Origin: a virus
Taxonomy: Duplodnaviria; Heunggongvirae; Uroviricota; Caudoviricetes
Virus record (IMG/VR): IMGVR_UViG_2548876962_000006
Coordinates: 1 to 16,814 of that record
Reading direction: 5' to 3' (one strand)
Length of the DNA: 16,814 nt
Of this stretch, positions 1 through 11,353 are shown in pieces; positions within the stretch are counted from its first letter, which is position 1; every line of letters begins with the position of its first letter. The translations under genes and the position numbers were made by a program. The notes under the pieces were generated by a model that saw only the letters and a program-made list of their open reading frames with translations, had not been told where the DNA came from and did no database searches.

Positions 1-519
1 TCCATTCCGGCTGGTTTTAAAGCACTGGCTGACATGAGTCCGTTTGAATCCCTGCTGATTGTGGATTTAGGCGGAACCACGCTGGATGTGGCAAAGGTTC
101 AGGGACAACTGGCAGGTATCAGCCAGGTGTTTTGCGATCCACACGTAGGCGTTTCTCTGATGGCCAATGCCGTACTGTCGGTGATGGCCACTAACGGTAT
201 GCGCACCAGTCACCACATCGCCAATACCATTATCGAACATCGCCATGATGAAGCCTGGCTGCGCCAGCACATCCACAATGACGCACATTACAACAGCCTG
301 ATGGCGGTTATTCGTGAAAAGGAAGAAACACTGAAACAACGTGTACTCCGCGCGCTGGCGAGCTTTTCGGGTTACGGGCGGGTGATGGTTGTCGGTGGAG
401 GGGCGGAGATTGTGGCACCCGCTGTCCGCGAAGCCTGCGGAGTTAATGCGACTTTTATCGCGGACGGGGTGCCACAGTTTGCTCTGGTTAATGGGCTGTA
501 CGCAATGGACAAGGAGTAA
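1..519 (+). CDS. parM: ParM/StbA-like actin-type plasmid segregation ATPase, C-terminal part (5' end lies outside the window)
   Basis: Frame 1 is open from base 1 to the TAA at 517-519. The translation contains actin-fold motifs (LLIVDLGGTTLDVA; RVMVVGGGAEIV) and a C-terminus (FALVNGLYAM) resembling R1 ParM. A parR-like gene follows 4 bp downstream. Confidence 0.7.
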   Translation, partial: SIPAGFKALADMSPFESLLIVDLGGTTLDVAKVQGQLAGISQVFCDPHVGVSLMANAVLSVMATNGMRTSHHIANTIIEHRHDEAWLRQHIHNDAHYNSLMAVIREKEETLKQRVLRALASFSGYGRVMVVGGGAEIVAPAVREACGVNATFIADGVPQFALVNGLYAMDKE

Positions 520-523
520 ACCA

Positions 524-835
524 ATGACGACACCAACCAGACGGATAAGTTTCTATCTGAAGCCTGCAGCCGTCAAGAACGAAAGCGAAGCATGCGCCTG
601 GCTGGACAGCCTTACACCAGAAGCCCGCAAAAGCGGCCAGCGTGTGGCTTTTCTGGCCGGGCTGGCACTTCTGAAGACGAATCCGGCAGAGGCTTACCGG
701 CTGGCTGCATGGGCTGACGATGAGCCGTTACCCGTGACACAGGTCAGAGAGGAAAAAACCAAAGCACAGGCTGCGCCAGAGGCGCAGCCAACCAGCCAGA
801 TGGCCGCAAACATCAGAGCGTTATTCCCCGAATAA
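524..835 (+). CDS. parR: ParR-like centromere-binding adaptor (ribbon-helix-helix)
   Basis: ATG at 524 preceded by AAGGAG at 511-516. The N-terminus (RRISFYLKP...AWLDSLTPEARKSGQRVAFLAGLALL) and C-terminus (IRALFPE) resemble R1 ParR as recalled. The upstream part of the 389-835 ORF overlaps parM and is not used. Confidence 0.65.
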   Translation: MTTPTRRISFYLKPAAVKNESEACAWLDSLTPEARKSGQRVAFLAGLALLKTNPAEAYRLAAWADDEPLPVTQVREEKTKAQAAPEAQPTSQMAANIRALFPE

Positions 836-846
836 GGAGACGTGAT

Positions 847-885
847 AAGGCATGACGGACAGTTTTATTTAGTAAGTCATGCCTT
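847..885. repeat. Perfect 10-bp inverted repeat AAGGCATGAC-N19-GTCATGCCTT between parR and the next gene
   Basis: Read directly: 847-856 aaggcatgac and 876-885 gtcatgcctt are exact reverse complements, separated by an AT-rich 19-bp spacer. Candidate operator or RNA stem-loop; there is no U-tract after it. Confidence 0.6.
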
Positions 886-909
886 CAGAACAGTAAGCAT
901 GAGGCATCC

Positions 910-1110
910 ATGATGAAAAGACTGACATTACTTTTTTCGCTGTTTTTCATTCCGTTGGCGCATTCAACCACGCCGAACTGCGCAACGGAAAAGAGCAACA
1001 CCGTCATCGTTGTCCAGTGCGATGACGGCACGGTGACAATCACCGACTCAAGTAAGGGAAGCGTCCTGGTCTGTCGCAAAGGACACCTCTGTCAGCACAC
1101 TGAACTTTGA
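910..1110 (+). CDS. Small secreted cysteine-rich protein of unknown function (signal peptide plus about 47-aa mature part with 4 Cys)
   Basis: GAGG at 901-904 five nt before ATG 910. N-terminus [19 protein letters not shown] is a typical Sec signal peptide. The mature part has four Cys (C-x17-C...C-x5-C), consistent with a disulfide-bonded periplasmic mini-protein. No family recognised. Confidence 0.5.
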
Positions 1111-1121
1111 AGGAGAAAGAG

Positions 1122-1454
1122 ATGACCACATCGCATTCTGCAATTACCGAGGAAAAAGCCTTCCACATACTCGAACGACTGGAGGCGCTCGCCACAGAGG
1201 AAGAAATCGCCCCGGAGAAACTGGTTGAGTGCTGCCGTGTGATGTTGCGCCGCAAGAACGACATCGCGAGGCTGACATCCTACACATCATCCGTATCTAT
1301 CAGGCAAACGCTTTATTGCAGCTTCTGCAAGAAACCACAGCACGCCATCAAAAAGTTAATTGCCGGGGACGACGTTTTCATCTGCGACGAGTGTGTGGAA
1401 GTGTGCAACAGCGTTATCCGAGAAGAACAAGGAACGCAGGGAGCAGGAAGATGA
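1122..1454 (+). CDS. Stand-alone protein with a C-terminal ClpX-type C4 zinc-binding domain (ZBD)
   Basis: ATG 1122 preceded by AGGAG at 1111-1115. The C-terminal segment [40 protein letters not shown] aligns residue-by-residue with the E. coli ClpX N-domain ([40 protein letters not shown], recalled from memory) including all four Zn-ligand Cys. There is no AAA+ module. The N-terminal 55 aa are acidic/helical and unrecognised. Confidence 0.7.
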
Positions 1455-1520
1455 ATGACGAATTTGACGGCTTTTAATTTTATCGGGGCGCACTGTCGCC
1501 CCCGCACTAAGGAAAACACG

Positions 1521-2045
1521 ATGAAAAAAGATGAATATCTGTTCATGACGAACGCGTTGCGGGTTGGTCTGGCCCCCTGCCCTGTCTCCGTGGAGTCTGT
1601 TGTCGGGAACACGATTTTTCGAACACTGCGCGATCGCGTCTCCGTGAAAATGATTCATCCGCTACCCAAAACCGCCAGCATGATCTATCTGCCGTTGCCC
1701 GACGCGATCCGGCTCATGCGTTCGCTGAAATTTGCGATTTGGATGCAGACACAACTCAACAAAGCAGTACAAAACACCTTCGTTAAGAGATTGATGCCAG
1801 AGCTTGCCGCCAGATGCGCAAAATGCACCAGACCAGCACTTCACTTTGATCTGTCGTTGATTCAACGCGCTGCCGAATCCGAGTTCTACCGACTTACCTT
1901 TATCCGTCATGCGCGACATGAGGACAAAGAGATGCGCCGCCTTTTGAATCTGTTTGTTTTTTCCGTTCGACGCACACGCGTTCAGGTCAATCGCATGATG
2001 CAGGCACAGGAAGAGCTGACGCAACACAAAGGAGTCATCCAATGA
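1521..2045 (+). CDS. Hypothetical basic protein (174 aa), unknown function
   Basis: ATG 1521 preceded by AAGGA at 1509-1513. Its stop overlaps the next start (ATGA at 2042-2045), indicating translational coupling. An alternative start at ATG 1455 (overlapping the upstream stop) is possible. Arg/Lys-rich; no family recognised. Confidence 0.5.
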   Translation: MKKDEYLFMTNALRVGLAPCPVSVESVVGNTIFRTLRDRVSVKMIHPLPKTASMIYLPLPDAIRLMRSLKFAIWMQTQLNKAVQNTFVKRLMPELAARCAKCTRPALHFDLSLIQRAAESEFYRLTFIRHARHEDKEMRRLLNLFVFSVRRTRVQVNRMMQAQEELTQHKGVIQ

Positions 2046-2581
2046 GCAAGATTGACTATCAGGCACTGCGTGAAGCGGCAGAGCAGGCAATACATGATGA
2101 CTGGGGATATGATGCGGATATTTTCCATGAACAGGTGACACCATCGGGTGTGCTGGCGTTGCTGGATGAGAATGAAAGAATGTGCTGCAACCTCATCGCC
2201 CGCAATGGTGAGATTGAAGGGCTTCGAAGGCGGGCTGCTGAACTGGAAAAAATCGCCACGGACTATGCACTTAAATTCCAGAAAGCACAGGATGCACTAA
2301 AGTACGCCGTGTTAATGCGTAACAAAGCGCTTTCTTTTGAAGAGGCGATGCAATGTACAAAAGAAAAATACGAGGGAGTCATAAAAAAACTTGCCAAAAA
2401 CGAGCATCCAGTCTCACCAATACCAAAACCAGAGAATGACAAATTTACCGTATCGATCCCGGACCCAAAGGAGTATTTCATTAACGGCGTATTCCAGCCT
2501 TTGCGATACGAACGGGATGTTGAGCAAGCCATCATAAAGGCAGGCGGAAAAGTCTCGTGGCAGGAGACAGAAGATAATTAG
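2042..2581 (+). CDS. ead/Ea22-like family protein (lambdoid-phage accessory protein)
   Basis: N-terminus MSKIDYQALREAAEQA and the following coiled-coil segment (LLDENERM...GEIEGLRRRAAELEK) are typical of the Ea22-like family found in lambdoid prophage early-left regions. Start is coupled to the upstream gene. Confidence 0.6.
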   Translation: MSKIDYQALREAAEQAIHDDWGYDADIFHEQVTPSGVLALLDENERMCCNLIARNGEIEGLRRRAAELEKIATDYALKFQKAQDALKYAVLMRNKALSFEEAMQCTKEKYEGVIKKLAKNEHPVSPIPKPENDKFTVSIPDPKEYFINGVFQPLRYERDVEQAIIKAGGKVSWQETEDN

Positions 2582-2594
2582 ATCCACGACAAAC

Positions 2595-2620
2595 CAGGGC
2601 GATAATCACACATCGCCCTG
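2595..2620 (+). terminator. GC-rich hairpin (9-bp stem, 8-nt loop) 14 nt after the Ea22-like stop; possible terminator or RNA-processing structure
   Basis: CAGGGCGAT (2595-2603) pairs with ATCGCCCTG (2612-2620). No immediate U-tract; the nearest T-run is at 2647-2654, so intrinsic-terminator status is uncertain. Confidence 0.3.
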
Positions 2621-2621
2621 C

Positions 2622-2648
2622 TGCACAATAGTGCACAAATTTGCACAA
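2622..2648. promoter_or_regulatory. Three direct TGCACAA repeats with exact 10-bp phasing (iteron- or operator-like); a fourth copy at 2714-2720
   Basis: Read directly: TGCACAA at 2622-2628, 2632-2638 and 2642-2648, plus 2714-2720. Nearby are GGATCCGT direct repeats (2692-2699, 2703-2710) and the 14-bp palindrome AAAAACGCGTTTTT (2721-2734). Confidence 0.5.
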
Positions 2649-2962
2649 TTTTTTTGAACGACTTTTTACCCTTCCGGCCCGCGTGGCGGCTGGATCCGTA
2701 AAGGATCCGTGCGTGCACAAAAAAACGCGTTTTTGTTGCGCGCGGGTGCCGGGGGAACAGCCCGCAATTTGGGGTCTGAAAGCACCCTCAGAAAGCGCCA
2801 GAAATGCGGCTGATTGCGCCCCTGACGCGATGTTTTTTGTTGGGGTATCGTGTGTATTGCGCGATCTCATTCGCACTCTGTGGCTTGTTCTGGATGTGTG
2901 GTGCAGTCCGCGCCATTGAGGAGCGTGACAGGATACAGATGACATCAACAGAAGGAGGAGCC

Positions 2963-3466
2963 GTGGGACACTTTGAGGATTTGTGTTGCATTAACCGGGA
3001 TGTGGAAAGAAAGCGTTATCGGGCCACTGAAATCTTACGGGATGAGGCCCGTAGCCTGGTCGGGTTTTATGAGGACTGGCTGGGGCTTCCGTCGCTGTAC
3101 CGCGAACACGAACACGGCGAGTCGCGGCCTTATGTGGAAACAGGCCTGCCCTGTCGGAACGCGGAAGACTTTCGCGCCTGTTCTGTTAATCAAATCCCTG
3201 TCGCAGCAGACGGTATTTTCCATGTGGCCGTGCGTACATGGATTGAATCACTGTCGGGTATTGAGCCGGTTGATATTGTTGTTGCGTTTGAGTTGCATTC
3301 GGTGAGCGAAGCTCGCACTACGCTGAAAGTCACCGTGGAGGATGATGTTTCTGTTCGCGTGAGCATTACTGCGCCGGAAGACAGGAAATGGACGGGGGTG
3401 ACGAAAAGCATGAAAAGACACATCGCCGTCCGTCTGAAAAAACGCGCTCCGTTTGCACTTCGTTAA
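2963..3466 (+). CDS. Hypothetical protein (about 167 aa), unknown function, last gene before the Q stop and cos region
   Basis: Open frame 2804-3466. Best start by RBS is GTG 2963 (AAGGAGGAG at 2952-2960); alternatives are ATG 2939 and ATG 2804, the latter adding a hydrophobic Cys-rich N-terminus. No family recognised. Confidence 0.45.
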   Translation: MGHFEDLCCINRDVERKRYRATEILRDEARSLVGFYEDWLGLPSLYREHEHGESRPYVETGLPCRNAEDFRACSVNQIPVAADGIFHVAVRTWIESLSGIEPVDIVVAFELHSVSEARTTLKVTVEDDVSVRVSITAPEDRKWTGVTKSMKRHIAVRLKKRAPFALR

Positions 3467-3482
3467 GCCGGAGCTGGTGAGT

Positions 3483-3507
3483 CGGGGCATAAATTTTTTA
3501 TGCCCCG
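3483..3507. terminator. Perfect 11-bp-stem hairpin (CGGGGCATAAA-TTT-TTTATGCCCCG) between convergent genes; candidate bidirectional terminator and/or cos-associated structure
   Basis: Read directly. It lies in the 67-bp gap between the plus-strand gene ending 3466 and the minus-strand Q gene ending 3534. No flanking U-tract on either strand. Confidence 0.35.
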
Positions 3508-3533
3508 GCGAAGCAGCAGACAAGCGCAGCGCG

Positions 3534-4583
3534 TCAGGATGTGGGCGGGGCATCCAGCAGTGCGTAAGGGTTAAAGCGGATCACCTCCTCACCCAGCCAG
3601 TCATTAACGTGCTTCATCGCCTCCATCACCGGCATCAGTTCGTTGATCGCAAACACTCTTGCCGCCTTCTCCACATCACCAAATGACCCCTGTCCGCTGG
3701 GCATTGCGCCCATCAGTTGTGGTGGTACGCGGTGAGCAGCCAGCACATCATCGCGGGAGGCCGCCTTGACGTTCATAAACTCATCCCGGGCGGTGATCTG
3801 CTGGAACGGCAGGATTTGCACACCGTCCTTCCCGCCGTTCGGTGCCTGGAGCAGCAGGTTTTTGAATGCCCCACCGCCTCTTGCACCCTGCAACGCTCTT
3901 TCGAGCGCCTGCATGCTTTCGCGGTCAACCTGTGCTGCTCCCACGTAAATAATGCAGCCTGCGTGTGAACCGTTGTCATAGTAGAGTTTGCGAAAACGAT
4001 CTGCCGAATGCGACAGACTGGCAGACAACAGGCCGCCGAGATATTCCGGCATTCCGTACATCTCCTGGTTGATGTCAGGGTTCAGCACATGACAGACGCG
4101 CCCCTGACGGAACTCGTGGTCCTGCTCGCCCGTCTGTACAAACCAGTACACATCCGGCTCAACACCACGACGGACGTATTTTGCCAGGGCATGGCGCAGT
4201 TCCAGTTTTCCGCCCAGCCTGTTGGTGCGCAGTTCAAGAAACGCATTCCCGAAGACAAACCAGTCCAGCGCAAAGGCGGAGAACGCCTGCCGGGACAGCA
4301 GCCGGTGCGGAATGAAGCAGCCCAGAATGGCATTTCGTTTGAAGTACAGCGCCGACTGATGCCACGAGGTCTGCCGGGATGCCCGCGCCAGCCCGTACCA
4401 GTCAACGGGTGTTTCGTAGTACCTGCCGTTACTCAGGCAGTATGCGTTATCCAGCAGGTCGAGCGCGTGCGCATCGTAAGGGCCATCGAACGAGAAAGCG
4501 CTTAGCGACGGCTGGCGGCGCAGTGCCTCTGCCAGCTCCACGCCGTCATCGCGGCGGGTATATTTTCGTTTTTGTTTTTTCAT
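3534..4583 (-). CDS. Q: Portal protein (P2 gpQ homologue)
   Basis: 349-aa ORF, size and position as for P2 Q (about 344 aa), immediately downstream of and overlapping the terminase gene; start codon overlaps the P stop. Confidence 0.9.
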   Translation of the reverse strand: MKKQKRKYTRRDDGVELAEALRRQPSLSAFSFDGPYDAHALDLLDNAYCLSNGRYYETPVDWYGLARASRQTSWHQSALYFKRNAILGCFIPHRLLSRQAFSAFALDWFVFGNAFLELRTNRLGGKLELRHALAKYVRRGVEPDVYWFVQTGEQDHEFRQGRVCHVLNPDINQEMYGMPEYLGGLLSASLSHSADRFRKLYYDNGSHAGCIIYVGAAQVDRESMQALERALQGARGGGAFKNLLLQAPNGGKDGVQILPFQQITARDEFMNVKAASRDDVLAAHRVPPQLMGAMPSGQGSFGDVEKAARVFAINELMPVMEAMKHVNDWLGEEVIRFNPYALLDAPPTS

Positions 4584-6337
4584 CAGAACTCAATCACCCG
4601 CATTCCTGTTGCACCGTCCTCATCGCCCAGCGGCTCGTTAATGACGGCAAGCATGGTTGCCCACGCGAGGTCGCCGTGGTTTACGCCGCGCGTGCGGTCT
4701 GTTTCATACGTTATTGCGCCGCCCGCCGTTTTTGCCTTGCGCACGGCGTTGAATGCCCTGACCAGCTCACGTTCGCCCCGGTCATACTCCCAGCGCCCTG
4801 CACGAATAATCTGCAACATCTTCAGCACAAGCGCGCGTTTGGATGCCAGCGTGAACGTGTACGGTACGGCGGCAGGCCAGAACCGCCGCACTATCTGGTA
4901 CACTGCCTCACCGTTACCGCCGGTCACGTCGATGCCAATGTGCCGGACGTTGTATTTGTGCGTGAACTGCTCAATCACACGGGCCTGCTCTTCAAATTCC
5001 AGCCCCTGCACCTGCAAGGTCTCCACCGTGCGGAATTTGCCGCCCCTGACAGCAGGTGGTACAACAACAGACAGCGCCCCGCTGTCGCCATTACCGCTGC
5101 TGCCGTTAGCGTCGTAGCCAATCCACACGGGACGATTACCCACGGGACGTGCTGCGAACGGTTTCCAGTCATTCCACTCGTCATAGCCATCCACGCCACA
5201 TCCCAGCAGGGCATTAAGATCGAAGGCGGATTCGCCGTCGCTGACAAACTCGCACATGTAGAGATTGCGGAACTCATCCGGCGTGTTCATGTTGCGGATT
5301 TTGTCGATACTGGTGAGCGTCCAGCCCAGGTCCACAGCATCCTGAATCGTCACGATTTGCCGCCACGCACTGTCGGGGCACAGCACTCCACTCTTCAGGG
5401 CGTGATGGGACACATCAATCTCCCTGCGCTCACTGCGTGGTCGCCCTGCATTCCACCGCGCGCCGTTCCAGAACTGAAACGCCTCGTGCATCTCCGATGA
5501 CGGCGTGGAAAAGTAGGTCTGCGTCAGGCCATTCAGCGTGGCCATCGCGCCTGCGACCTTGCGCAGCGTGATGAAGTTCGACACCCAGAAAAATTCGTCA
5601 AAATACAGATTGCCCGTATATGACTGTGCAGTCGCGGCGGATGTCCCCAGAAAATGCAGTTCCGCGCCACTGGAAAGCACAATTTTGTCACCGCCTTTCA
5701 GCTCGACGTCCACAGCCTGTGCCGCCTTCTGAATCACGCTTTTAAACTGAAAGGCCTGACGGCGTGAGGCTGACAAAAAAATCTGGTTTCGCTGGTACGG
5801 ATATTTCACGCGCTCATCCAGCGCACGCAGCAGTGCCTCCTGCGCAAAATACCAGGTCGCGCCTATCTGTCGGGATTTCACAATAATGCGAATATCAACA
5901 CCGGCACGGCGGCAGACTTCCAGCGCCTCATACCAGCGTCGCTGATGTTCTGCCAGCTGACCGGTGATGTGTTCGCGCAGTGCGGCAACCTGCGATTCGG
6001 AAAAATGGTTTTTCAGCTTTCGTTTTCGCGGGCTTTTTTCCGCGCAGCCCTTGCTGTCATTCAGTTTTGCGAGCTGGCGTGTCAGCAGGTCGATTTCCTT
6101 AAAATCACCGCCGCTCTTTTCAGCTTTTGAGGTCAGCTGAACCAGCCGCGCATCAATCGACTGCGTGACCCGCTCCACGGGCGGCGTTTCATCCCATCCG
6201 TCGCGCTTTTTCCACGAATAAATCGTGTTCTGACTGATACCCATCAGCCGCGATATTTCAGCGGGCGGGTAACCCTGCCAGTAAAGCTGTTTTGCCCGCA
6301 GCCTGATGAATGCGTCCTGAATCATGTCGTCTGTCAC
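4583..6337 (-). CDS. P: Terminase large (ATPase/nuclease) subunit (P2 gpP homologue)
   Basis: 584-aa ORF divergent from O, as in P2. The ORF-track start is GTG at 6337 with AGGAG directly adjacent; ATG at 6325 (MIQDAF...) is an alternative start. Confidence 0.9.
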   Translation of the reverse strand: MTDDMIQDAFIRLRAKQLYWQGYPPAEISRLMGISQNTIYSWKKRDGWDETPPVERVTQSIDARLVQLTSKAEKSGGDFKEIDLLTRQLAKLNDSKGCAEKSPRKRKLKNHFSESQVAALREHITGQLAEHQRRWYEALEVCRRAGVDIRIIVKSRQIGATWYFAQEALLRALDERVKYPYQRNQIFLSASRRQAFQFKSVIQKAAQAVDVELKGGDKIVLSSGAELHFLGTSAATAQSYTGNLYFDEFFWVSNFITLRKVAGAMATLNGLTQTYFSTPSSEMHEAFQFWNGARWNAGRPRSERREIDVSHHALKSGVLCPDSAWRQIVTIQDAVDLGWTLTSIDKIRNMNTPDEFRNLYMCEFVSDGESAFDLNALLGCGVDGYDEWNDWKPFAARPVGNRPVWIGYDANGSSGNGDSGALSVVVPPAVRGGKFRTVETLQVQGLEFEEQARVIEQFTHKYNVRHIGIDVTGGNGEAVYQIVRRFWPAAVPYTFTLASKRALVLKMLQIIRAGRWEYDRGERELVRAFNAVRKAKTAGGAITYETDRTRGVNHGDLAWATMLAVINEPLGDEDGATGMRVIEF

Positions 6338-10910: not shown

Positions 10911-11353
10911 GACTGACCACCGCCGCCGTTGTCGCCCTGTTTTCAGGGGCGCTGTATCTGGTGTCGCTGCGTCTGGCCTGGCAGGCAGGGCATGAACGGG
11001 CACGTCGTGAATATCACGAACAGGCGCTGGCGGGAACGAATGCCGCCGTGGATGCACTTCATGCAGAACTCCGGGGCATCAGCGGCCTGCTGGCGCAGGT
11101 CCGCGCCGCAGAGCAGCACCGGAATCAGGAAGGAGAAAAACGCCGTGAAGAGATACGCAACGCACTCCGGGAAAATCCGTGCGCGGCTGCTGCTGTGCCT
11201 GCCGCTGTTGCTGACCGCCTGCAACAGCGCGCCGCGACCCGTCGTGGTCACTCAGACGCAGCACGCACCGCTGCCGGAAAGTCTGACACAGCCAACGCCG
11301 GTCCCCTCCCTGCCCCGACCGCTGACGTGGGGCGGACTGGCCGTCTGGAGTGA
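10907..11353 (+). CDS. lysB: i-spanin (Rz/LysB-like inner-membrane spanin subunit)
   Basis: GTG 10907 with GGAG 8 nt upstream, overlapping the endolysin stop. N-terminal TMD (TTAAVVALFSGALYLVSL) followed by a charged coiled-coil periplasmic region. An o-spanin gene starts within it in the +1 frame. Confidence 0.6.
   Translation: MRLTTAAVVALFSGALYLVSLRLAWQAGHERARREYHEQALAGTNAAVDALHAELRGISGLLAQVRAAEQHRNQEGEKRREEIRNALRENPCAAAAVPAAVADRLQQRAATRRGHSDAARTAAGKSDTANAGPLPAPTADVGRTGRLE

Follow-up and report, generated by a model that had tools for sequence, protein, structure and literature searches.

We have found that the window (the whole stretch of 16,814 nt analysed here) opens inside a segregation module which protein domain and sequence matches confirm as a genuine member of the R1 family (type II, ParMRC). 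Judged from gene order in complete relatives, the module is an internal and native part of the genome of P88-like phages, a P2-type lineage, in which it stands between gene A and the cargo and portal genes. Its parM gene is under strong purifying selection. We propose, with a probability of about 0.55, that the phage ParMRC system positions or separates circular copies of the phage genome after infection or induction.

Frame 1 is open from the left edge of the window to a TAA stop and encodes 172 residues of ParM; the first 441 nt of the gene, along with the N-terminal half of the protein, lie to the left of the window. The encoded part covers the whole of PF21523, the Pfam domain for the ParM C-terminus (E = 5.3e-69), and in BLASTP it is 41% identical to residues 149–316 of R1-type ParM (E = 2e-46). 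The comparator was the pETEC_80 protein, itself 99% identical to R1 ParM in PDB entry 1mwk. Both the phosphate-2 motif (DLGGTT) and the adenosine motif (GGGAE) are preserved. The full-length orthologue from phage P88 matches PF06406 (E = 1.8e-82) and the R1 ParM of 1mwk (E = 9e-93), and it carries the DDGST motif, which is also present in the full-length ParM of relatives. R1 ParM is built from the same Pfam families (StbA_N and the ParM C-terminal domain) and is 46% identical to the full-length P88 orthologue.

The ATG of parR stands 4 nt past the parM stop and 7 nt past the sequence AAGGAG. The R1 parMRC locus (parA/stb) has the same order, parC-parM-parR, with parR likewise a few bases past the stop of parM. 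Residues 6–69 of the phage ParR match the Pfam family Plasmid_stab_B (StbB/ParR family), and the protein matches PHROG 2515, ‘partition protein’, from end to end (E-values in Table 1). A PDB sequence search with ParR produced no match, even at E = 1. For the family identity of ParM and ParR as predicted proteins we regard the Pfam, PDB and BLAST matches as decisive. An earlier, sequence-only reading of this DNA had placed a ParM C-terminus and a ParR in the same orientation directly upstream of the cargo operon, and both the coordinates and the identities agree with the Pfam, BLASTP and PHROG results. The same reading had described the similarity to R1 ParR as clear. By alignment this holds at the family level only: residues 6–61 are 34% identical to R1-type ParR over 56 aa (E = 3e-8), while overall identity is ∼23% and the phage protein is shorter (103 versus 116 aa).

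The layout of ParR consists of a predicted N-terminal DNA-binding domain of the StbB/ParR family (aa 6–69), a variable linker (aa 67–91) and a conserved C-terminal tail. When the protein is aligned with five plasmid or D6 ParRs, its N-terminal strand TRRISFYLKP pairs with RRTIAFKLNP of R1, and its tail MAANIRALFPE aligns with their C-terminal tails, including the R1-type TKKNAMKLIN; an Asn invariant in the aligned tails corresponds to N96 of the phage ParR. In R1, the C-terminal tail of ParR is the peptide that binds ParM. Substitutions among the phage alleles are concentrated in residues 67–91, with residues 1–66 and 92–103 almost invariant, and even an allele only 53% identical overall keeps RRISFYLKP, FLAGLAL and NIxxLFPE. 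This pattern of variation fits the predicted layout, in which the N-terminal domain would bind DNA, the C-terminal tail would bind a partner and the stretch between them would be a flexible linker.

Table 1. Features of the window discussed in the text
Feature	Position	Strand	Remarks
parM 3′ part, C-terminal 172 codons and stop	1..519	+	R1-family actin-like segregation ATPase
parR, 103-aa adaptor	524..835	+	PF10784, E 2.3e-23; phrog_2515, E 1.6e-55
parR-cargo spacer	836..909	+	10-bp perfect inverted repeat, 847-856 / 876-885
Variable cargo stretch	910..2655	+	ORFs at 910-2581, same direction as parMR
Portal	3534-4583	-	rest of window
Tail-fibre gene	from 14905		runs off right end of window

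By its nucleotide matches, the window is a P88-like P2-type phage (genus Xuanwuvirus, Peduoviridae). A megablast search with positions 1–4000 gave 88–96% identity over parMR and the portal gene to P88-like phages, including Citrobacter phage Shae_phiSM and Escherichia phages Chuche, P88, 520873, 503458, P884B11 and others; compared as a whole, the window is 95% identical to E. coli chromosomal prophages over up to 83% of its length. In complete relatives the genes follow the order int, C, cox, early genes, A, parM, parR, cargo, portal Q, terminase P and so on to D and ogr. The part of this order that runs from A through parM, parR and cargo to the portal is common to P88, PhiSM, the E. coli SWHEFF_58 prophage (located between prpC and prpB), a 34.4-kb circular record and prophages in large plasmids. 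P88, PhiSM, P884B11 and 520873 likewise continue with terminase and a P2-type structural module, but they carry different cargo between parR and the portal gene, and the ParR linker of the window represents another allele. Every complete relative carries integrase, the C repressor, cox and ogr, and relatives found in bacterial replicons are integrated prophages with int and att-flanked ends.

Because the complete relatives share the order from int through A, parM, parR and cargo to the portal gene, we take the parMR pair to be an internal part of the phage genome, and the claim that an R1-family parMR is carried inside a P2-type phage is borne out by that order. It had also been suggested that the prophage might be embedded in plasmid DNA or truncated next to it. 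This possibility is rejected, as parMR sits in the relatives between gene A and the portal gene, far from either att end, and an att boundary between parR and the cargo was looked for in the complete relatives and none was seen.

The module is ordinary and common in the P88-like lineage, contrary to the expectation, voiced in the sequence-only reading, that P2-type phages normally lack plasmid partition systems. Each of the 10 sequenced P88-like phages has it. A tblastn search of 50,697 phage records with full-length P88 ParM found 14 P88-like records, at 96–100% amino acid identity, and a single other phage record with an R1-type ParM, the P1-like plasmid prophage D6 (48%). Positions 1–835 of the window are matched in 1280 of 5426 complete E. 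coli genomes (24%), and up to three copies of the module occur in one genome. As to replicon context, these matches occupy 1419 chromosomal places versus 2 plasmid places, a second probe gave 1716 versus 2, and the chromosomal share of places thus exceeds 99.8%. P88-like phages are therefore normally integrated in the chromosome, and the counts, along with the retained integrase, do not support a habitual phage-plasmid lifestyle, which had been one of the explanations first offered. The same counts set the module apart from type II partition systems of low-copy autonomous replicons, a distinction which concerns where a system lives, not its molecular family.

The presence of parMR in P88-like phages, as well as the main phage-plasmid reading, is already known from print. 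Rousset et al. (2022), who analysed 18,150 gpA–gpQ loci and defined the gpA–gpQ interval as an anti-phage hotspot, remarked on the ParMR module and counted it among the ‘systems’ of this interval. ORF35 of PhiSM has been listed as a ‘fitness’ gene or putative fitness factor (PMC6456863). The E. coli chromosomes listed bear the RefSeq labels ‘plasmid segregation protein ParM’ and ‘plasmid partitioning/stability family protein’, and both proteins are represented by families in PHROGs. In the literature searched (on P88, on Xuanwuvirus and on ParM with P2-like phages) we found annotation-level mentions only and no functional study or experiment on a P88-like parMR.

Recent capture of the module from a plasmid, another of the explanations put forward at first, is rejected on comparison with plasmid collections. 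When P88 ParM was searched against 72,556 plasmids, more than 5000 records matched; among the best 5000 of them, identity falls from at least 99% (six records) to at most 52%, and the inspected records at or above 99% are P88-like phage genomes or prophages. The phage ParR, searched by tblastn against the same 72,556 plasmids at E = 1e-5, hit seven records, none of them an R1-type parR. The inspected PLSDB records that match ParR are P88-like prophages in large plasmids or in mis-typed replicons, where the prophages embedded in large plasmids adjoin captured chromosomal genes, plus one circular whole-phage copy; the ParR type is thus absent from plasmids themselves. A search of genome contigs with ParR peptides gave only three loci, two of them in assemblies that are probably contaminated or mislabelled, and so yielded no useful view of the taxonomic spread. 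Because of the gap in ParM identity and the occurrence of the phage-type ParR in only seven plasmid records, the phage module is an old and separate lineage of the R1 family, and any capture was ancient.

Among eight prophage alleles of full-length parM, dN/dS by the Nei–Gojobori method is 0.02–0.17 at dS of up to 0.32; for the parM segment in the window compared with relatives it is 0.13–0.38. For parR the values are 0.25–0.39, and the changes fall within the linker. All eight relatives analysed have intact reading frames, with the catalytic motifs kept, and both ParM and ParR are annotated as intact in the E. coli records listed.

The sequence-only reading had expected a parC centromere upstream of parM, outside the window, and the relatives, from which alone this region is known, do contain a candidate there. 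In eight relatives the block from −146 to the parM ATG has a mean column identity of 95% over a 171-column alignment. The block is also conserved in the SWHEFF_58 prophage, whose gene A is of another type and where only a pseudogene remnant of the 3′ end of a P88-type A survives beside it. Because the block is conserved even next to a different type of A, the cassette appears, by these alignments, to comprise the block, parM and parR. A 42-nt unit occurs twice within the block, at a spacing of 73 bp, and each copy bears the palindrome ACGGGATT-N4-AATCCCGT, which is found nowhere else in the 35.8-kb P88 genome; extra copies were sought in the window and none was present. The block also contains five to seven AAAC/AAAAC motifs phased at 10.5 bp. 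This phasing (Rayleigh-type power) is above that of dinucleotide shuffles with p of about 0.001–0.003 for a motif that was chosen after the sequences had been viewed, and a genuine R1-type parC, used as a control, gives the same signature with the same motif. Taken together, the 146-bp block is a plausible putative parC centromere and the predicted site of ParR binding. It overlaps the 3′ end of gene A, and both palindromes also score as minus-strand intrinsic terminators.

Helically phased AAAAC motifs are thus a feature shared by R1 parC and the phage block, but the two regions differ in architecture. The phage candidate has two 20-bp palindromes 73 bp apart, about five to seven phased motifs and no consensus promoter that we could find, whereas upstream of R1-type parM a central stretch with TTGACA is flanked on either side by iteron arrays rich in AAAAC. 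R1 ParR and the phage protein belong to one Pfam family, resemble each other in the N-terminal strand and align at the C-terminal tail. The R1 system resides in a low-copy plasmid, while the phage module resides in an integrating P2-type phage. The StbA/StbB pair of D6 also consists of an R1-family ParM followed by a StbB-type ParR; D6 is, though, a 91-kb plasmid prophage, in which a partition system is expected, and its upstream repeats differ from the phage block.

As to expression, parM and gene A share a strand, with 76 bp between the end of A and the start of parM. A scan for sigma-70 consensus sequences detected no promoter between A and parR, nor in positions 1–3700 of the window, which weakly favours co-transcription of A and parMR. 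In P88 the plus-strand terminator-like sites nearest to A are at 5082–5097 (upstream of A) and at 10912–10927, the latter being the equivalent of window positions 2631–2646, beyond the cargo; between these two sites there are only two weak 5-pair hairpins, both inside parM. Since the genes are on the same strand, 76 bp apart, with neither a consensus promoter nor a plus-strand terminator between them, parMR is most likely expressed with gene A, which would place its expression in the phase that follows infection or induction, when the genome replicates as a free circle; while the prophage is integrated and repressed, the pair would probably be silent. Such silence in lysogens would make the coexistence of up to three copies in one genome easier to reconcile. 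The tin and old genes of P2, located in the same A–Q interval, are kept on in lysogens. A simple promoter scan could miss a weak or ParR-regulated promoter that keeps parMR on in lysogens.

The mechanism we propose runs as follows. ParR dimers would bind the centromere-like block that precedes parM and would catch ParM-ATP filaments with their C-terminal tails, and growth of the filaments would push or position copies of the phage genome. Replication by gene A of the P2 type is of the rolling-circle kind; the monomeric phage circles would be spread or positioned while free. The benefit, we infer, may be that replication and packaging are aided, or that both daughter cells receive a copy before integration or lysis.

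We propose a role on the excised circle because two precedents fit it. In the AlpAC/alpS system of the Corynebacterium glutamicum prophage CGP3, an actin-like ATPase works with an adaptor whose binding sites are repeats upstream of the operon; the genes are switched on early and act on the excised circular DNA, which needs them for efficient replication and drops to half its copy number when either is lost (PMC4446434). The same study reports that AlpC lacks dynamic instability and seems to bring DNA to the membrane, and its authors argue for membrane targeting over segregation (PMC4446434). The phage module resembles AlpAC in that an actin-like ATPase and a DNA-binding adaptor reside in an integrated prophage, but in AlpAC the gene order is reversed, with the adaptor first, and both host and phage type are unrelated. 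The second precedent is srpMRC of the SXT/R391 ICEs, a relative of ParMRC which cuts the loss of the excised form, itself replicating by the rolling-circle mode, and which is only distantly related to R1 ParMR (PMC4489591). Here too a ParMRC-related system belongs to a normally integrated element, although that element is an ICE and not a phage; the P88-like module is much closer to R1 ParMR than srpMRC is.

Instead of acting on a short-lived circle, the module could make P88-like phages facultative phage-plasmids, with ParMRC partitioning them as low-copy circular episomes, for instance in cells whose attB is absent or already taken, an idea suggested in passing by Rousset et al. (2022). One circular whole-phage record does exist, NZ_CP148288.1, a 34,461-bp replicon made of an entire P88-like phage. 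A hok/gef-family gene, from a family of plasmid post-segregational-killing genes, is found both in this replicon and in P88; and the only other phage with an R1-type ParM, D6, is a plasmid prophage. Set against these points, a 3.4-kb segment of the phage in NZ_CP148288.1 is 99.9% identical to a chromosomal stretch in another strain of the same series, and the circular record may thus represent a phage copy that had been excised or induced and came out of the assembly on its own. The remaining PLSDB matches that we inspected are prophages lying within large plasmids. The relatives conserve integrase, C and cox, and their annotation tables contain no plasmid replicon, only the gene A replication endonuclease. 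The chromosomal bias seen with both probes, at 1419 places to 2 with the window, argues that an episomal state, if it occurs, is transient or rare, and we consider stable maintenance of this kind unlikely. Were it true, circles partitioned by ParMRC would persist for many generations, with the hok/gef-family gene in some of them adding post-segregational killing, and a quarter of E. coli P2-like prophages would be a hidden class of integrative phage-plasmids.

Alternatively, parM and parR could be an accessory pair expressed in lysogens, which would serve the host or prophage through interference with other elements (such as partition incompatibility towards plasmids or phages with a related parC) or through defence against phages. 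Location in the gpA–gpQ interval, the anti-phage hotspot of Rousset et al., is in line with this, and the palindrome-bearing block could hold an autonomous, ParR-regulated promoter, as in R1. PADLOC-DB gave no match for ParM, ParR or five cargo proteins at E ≤ 0.01, though, and absence of the ParR type from plasmids themselves makes cross-reaction with plasmid centromeres unlikely. In addition, the module is invariant in position and nearly so in sequence beside cargo that varies, which is the behaviour of core genes, and as many as three copies coexist in a single genome; an accessory function in lysogens is accordingly quite improbable. That the pair is an inert relic of old plasmid recombination, as the lack of need for partition in an integrated element could suggest, is barely credible, since the dN/dS of parM, the intact frames and catalytic motifs, and the functional ends of ParR kept in alleles only 53% identical exclude a decaying gene pair.

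Positioning or separation of circular genome copies after infection or induction is thus the reading we prefer, and what remains of interest is why an integrating phage with rolling-circle replication keeps an R1-family segregation machine under strong purifying selection. P88 and PhiSM are tractable and assays for R1 ParMRC are well established, so that the role is directly testable. The outcome would show if small temperate phages use cytoskeletal segregation in lytic growth or in the establishment of lysogeny, as has so far been shown for CGP3 and for ICEs.

Downstream of parR, the spacer folds as RNA with −20.2 kcal/mol (z = −2.84). Its inverted repeat is not followed by a T-run and is therefore not a typical intrinsic terminator, and a plus-strand terminator scan made no call in the spacer. 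The ORFs of the cargo stretch encode a 66-aa exported protein, a 110-aa ClpX-type zinc-finger protein, a 196-aa unknown protein and a 179-aa Ea22-like protein, with Pfam matches to PF06689 and PF13935. The stretch is closed by the first good plus-strand terminator-like hairpin, at 2631–2646, followed by a T-run. Cargo is poorly conserved among relatives that share parMR, and we treat it as context that lies outside the partition module.

Besides the portal gene, the rest of the window carries genes for the large terminase, the scaffold, a P2-family capsid, gpM, head completion, lysis and the baseplate. No copy of the P2 cos sequence GGCGAGGCGGGGAAAGCAC turned up in the window when as many as three mismatches were allowed. 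The structural genes stand in P2 order, and they are closest (95%) to those of the chromosomal prophage of E. coli SWHEFF_58, not to those of P88 itself.

The parR gene (524-835) proved to be a mosaic among E. coli prophages when complete E. coli genomes were matched with window positions 1-835: the match with the window ends at base 578, 741 or 804 in hundreds of these prophages. An alternative ParR allele (L005:4001-4315, in another record) is only 53% identical, even though the ParM encoded with it is at least 99% identical to that of phage P88. It seems that parR itself contains the left recombination boundary of the A-Q hotspot, the variable cargo interval between replication gene A and portal gene Q. 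The diversity of ParR is confined to the linker.

A further exchange may have occurred on the other side of the partition genes. The prophage of E. coli SWHEFF_58 (L003:10618-13560) has a gene A that is shorter than that of P88 and of another type. This gene is followed by a 456-nt ORF and then by a 69-nt pseudogene remnant of the 3′ end of a P88-type gene A, which directly adjoins the conserved block preceding parM. It looks as if the replication gene was swapped here, with the replacement ending at the edge of this parC-like block.

The circular record NZ_CP148288.1 (34,461 bp), listed as a plasmid in PLSDB, is a complete P88-like phage, integrase included. One 3.4-kb segment shares 99.9% identity with a prophage in the chromosome of strain Z1323HEC0067. 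Either the circle was assembled from an excised or induced copy, or the phage was in a rare episomal state. Both this record and P88 carry a hok/gef-family gene near ogr, which is missing from the SWHEFF_58 prophage, the closest relative of the window. Plasmid R1 has hok/sok as its second stability locus (parB); thus, relatives of both R1 stabilisation systems are present in some P88-like phages.

The 272-kb Salmonella IncHI2 plasmid NZ_CP110658.1 contains a P88-like prophage that carries sopE, adjoins IS26 and is flanked by the chromosomal housekeeping genes ffh, rpsP, trmD, pheA and tyrA; this is either a plasmid-captured chromosome segment that includes the prophage or a mis-assembly. Among genome contigs (L013 and L015), a 226-kb contig labelled Vagococcus sp. 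has parMR 97% identical to that of P88, and a 229-bp contig labelled Fredinandcohnia humi (0.97x coverage) gave a match as well. Since Vagococcus and Fredinandcohnia are both Firmicutes, these assemblies are likely to be contaminated or mislabelled.

Features of the cargo interval and hok/gef-family genes of relatives
Feature	Position	Strand	Remarks
66-aa ORF	910-1110	+	N-terminus signal-peptide-like
110-aa protein	1122-1454	+	ClpX-type C4 zinc finger at the C-terminus (PF06689, E 3.2e-16)
196-aa ORF	1455-2045	+	no match in Pfam, PHROG or PADLOC
Ea22-like protein	2042-2581	+	PF13935
Intergenic hairpins/palindromes	2595-2620; 2631-2646 plus T-run		also GGATCCGTAAAGGATCC; GCACAAAAAAACGCGTTTTTGTTGCGC; all within 2582-2803
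220-aa ORF	2804-3466	+	sole match phrog_5091, family of unknown function
Perfect hairpin CGGGGCATAAATTTTTTATGCCCCG	3484-3508		between 220-aa ORF and convergent portal gene
hok/gef-family gene, P88	L001:34928-35068		near ogr
hok/gef-family gene, NZ_CP148288.1	L004:1291-1431		near ogr

The 110-aa zinc-finger protein has no AAA+ domain, and its P88 equivalent is annotated as ‘carboxylate--amine ligase’; DNA with ∼82-86% identity to this stretch is present in phage D6 and other coliphages. The protein could be a mimic of a ClpX adaptor or an inhibitor. Over its first ∼130 nt, the Ea22-like gene shares ∼85% identity with the ea22 region found in lambda and further lambdoid phages, and this suggests an exchange of genes between lambdoid and P2-type phages.

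The intergenic region 2582-2803 is rich in hairpins and palindromes, and in the whole-window nucleotide comparison similarity to other P2-type prophages starts again at 2622. This region may be cos-proximal backbone, although the P2 cos sequence was not found anywhere in the window with up to three mismatches allowed. The hairpin between the 220-aa ORF and the portal gene looks like a bidirectional terminator.
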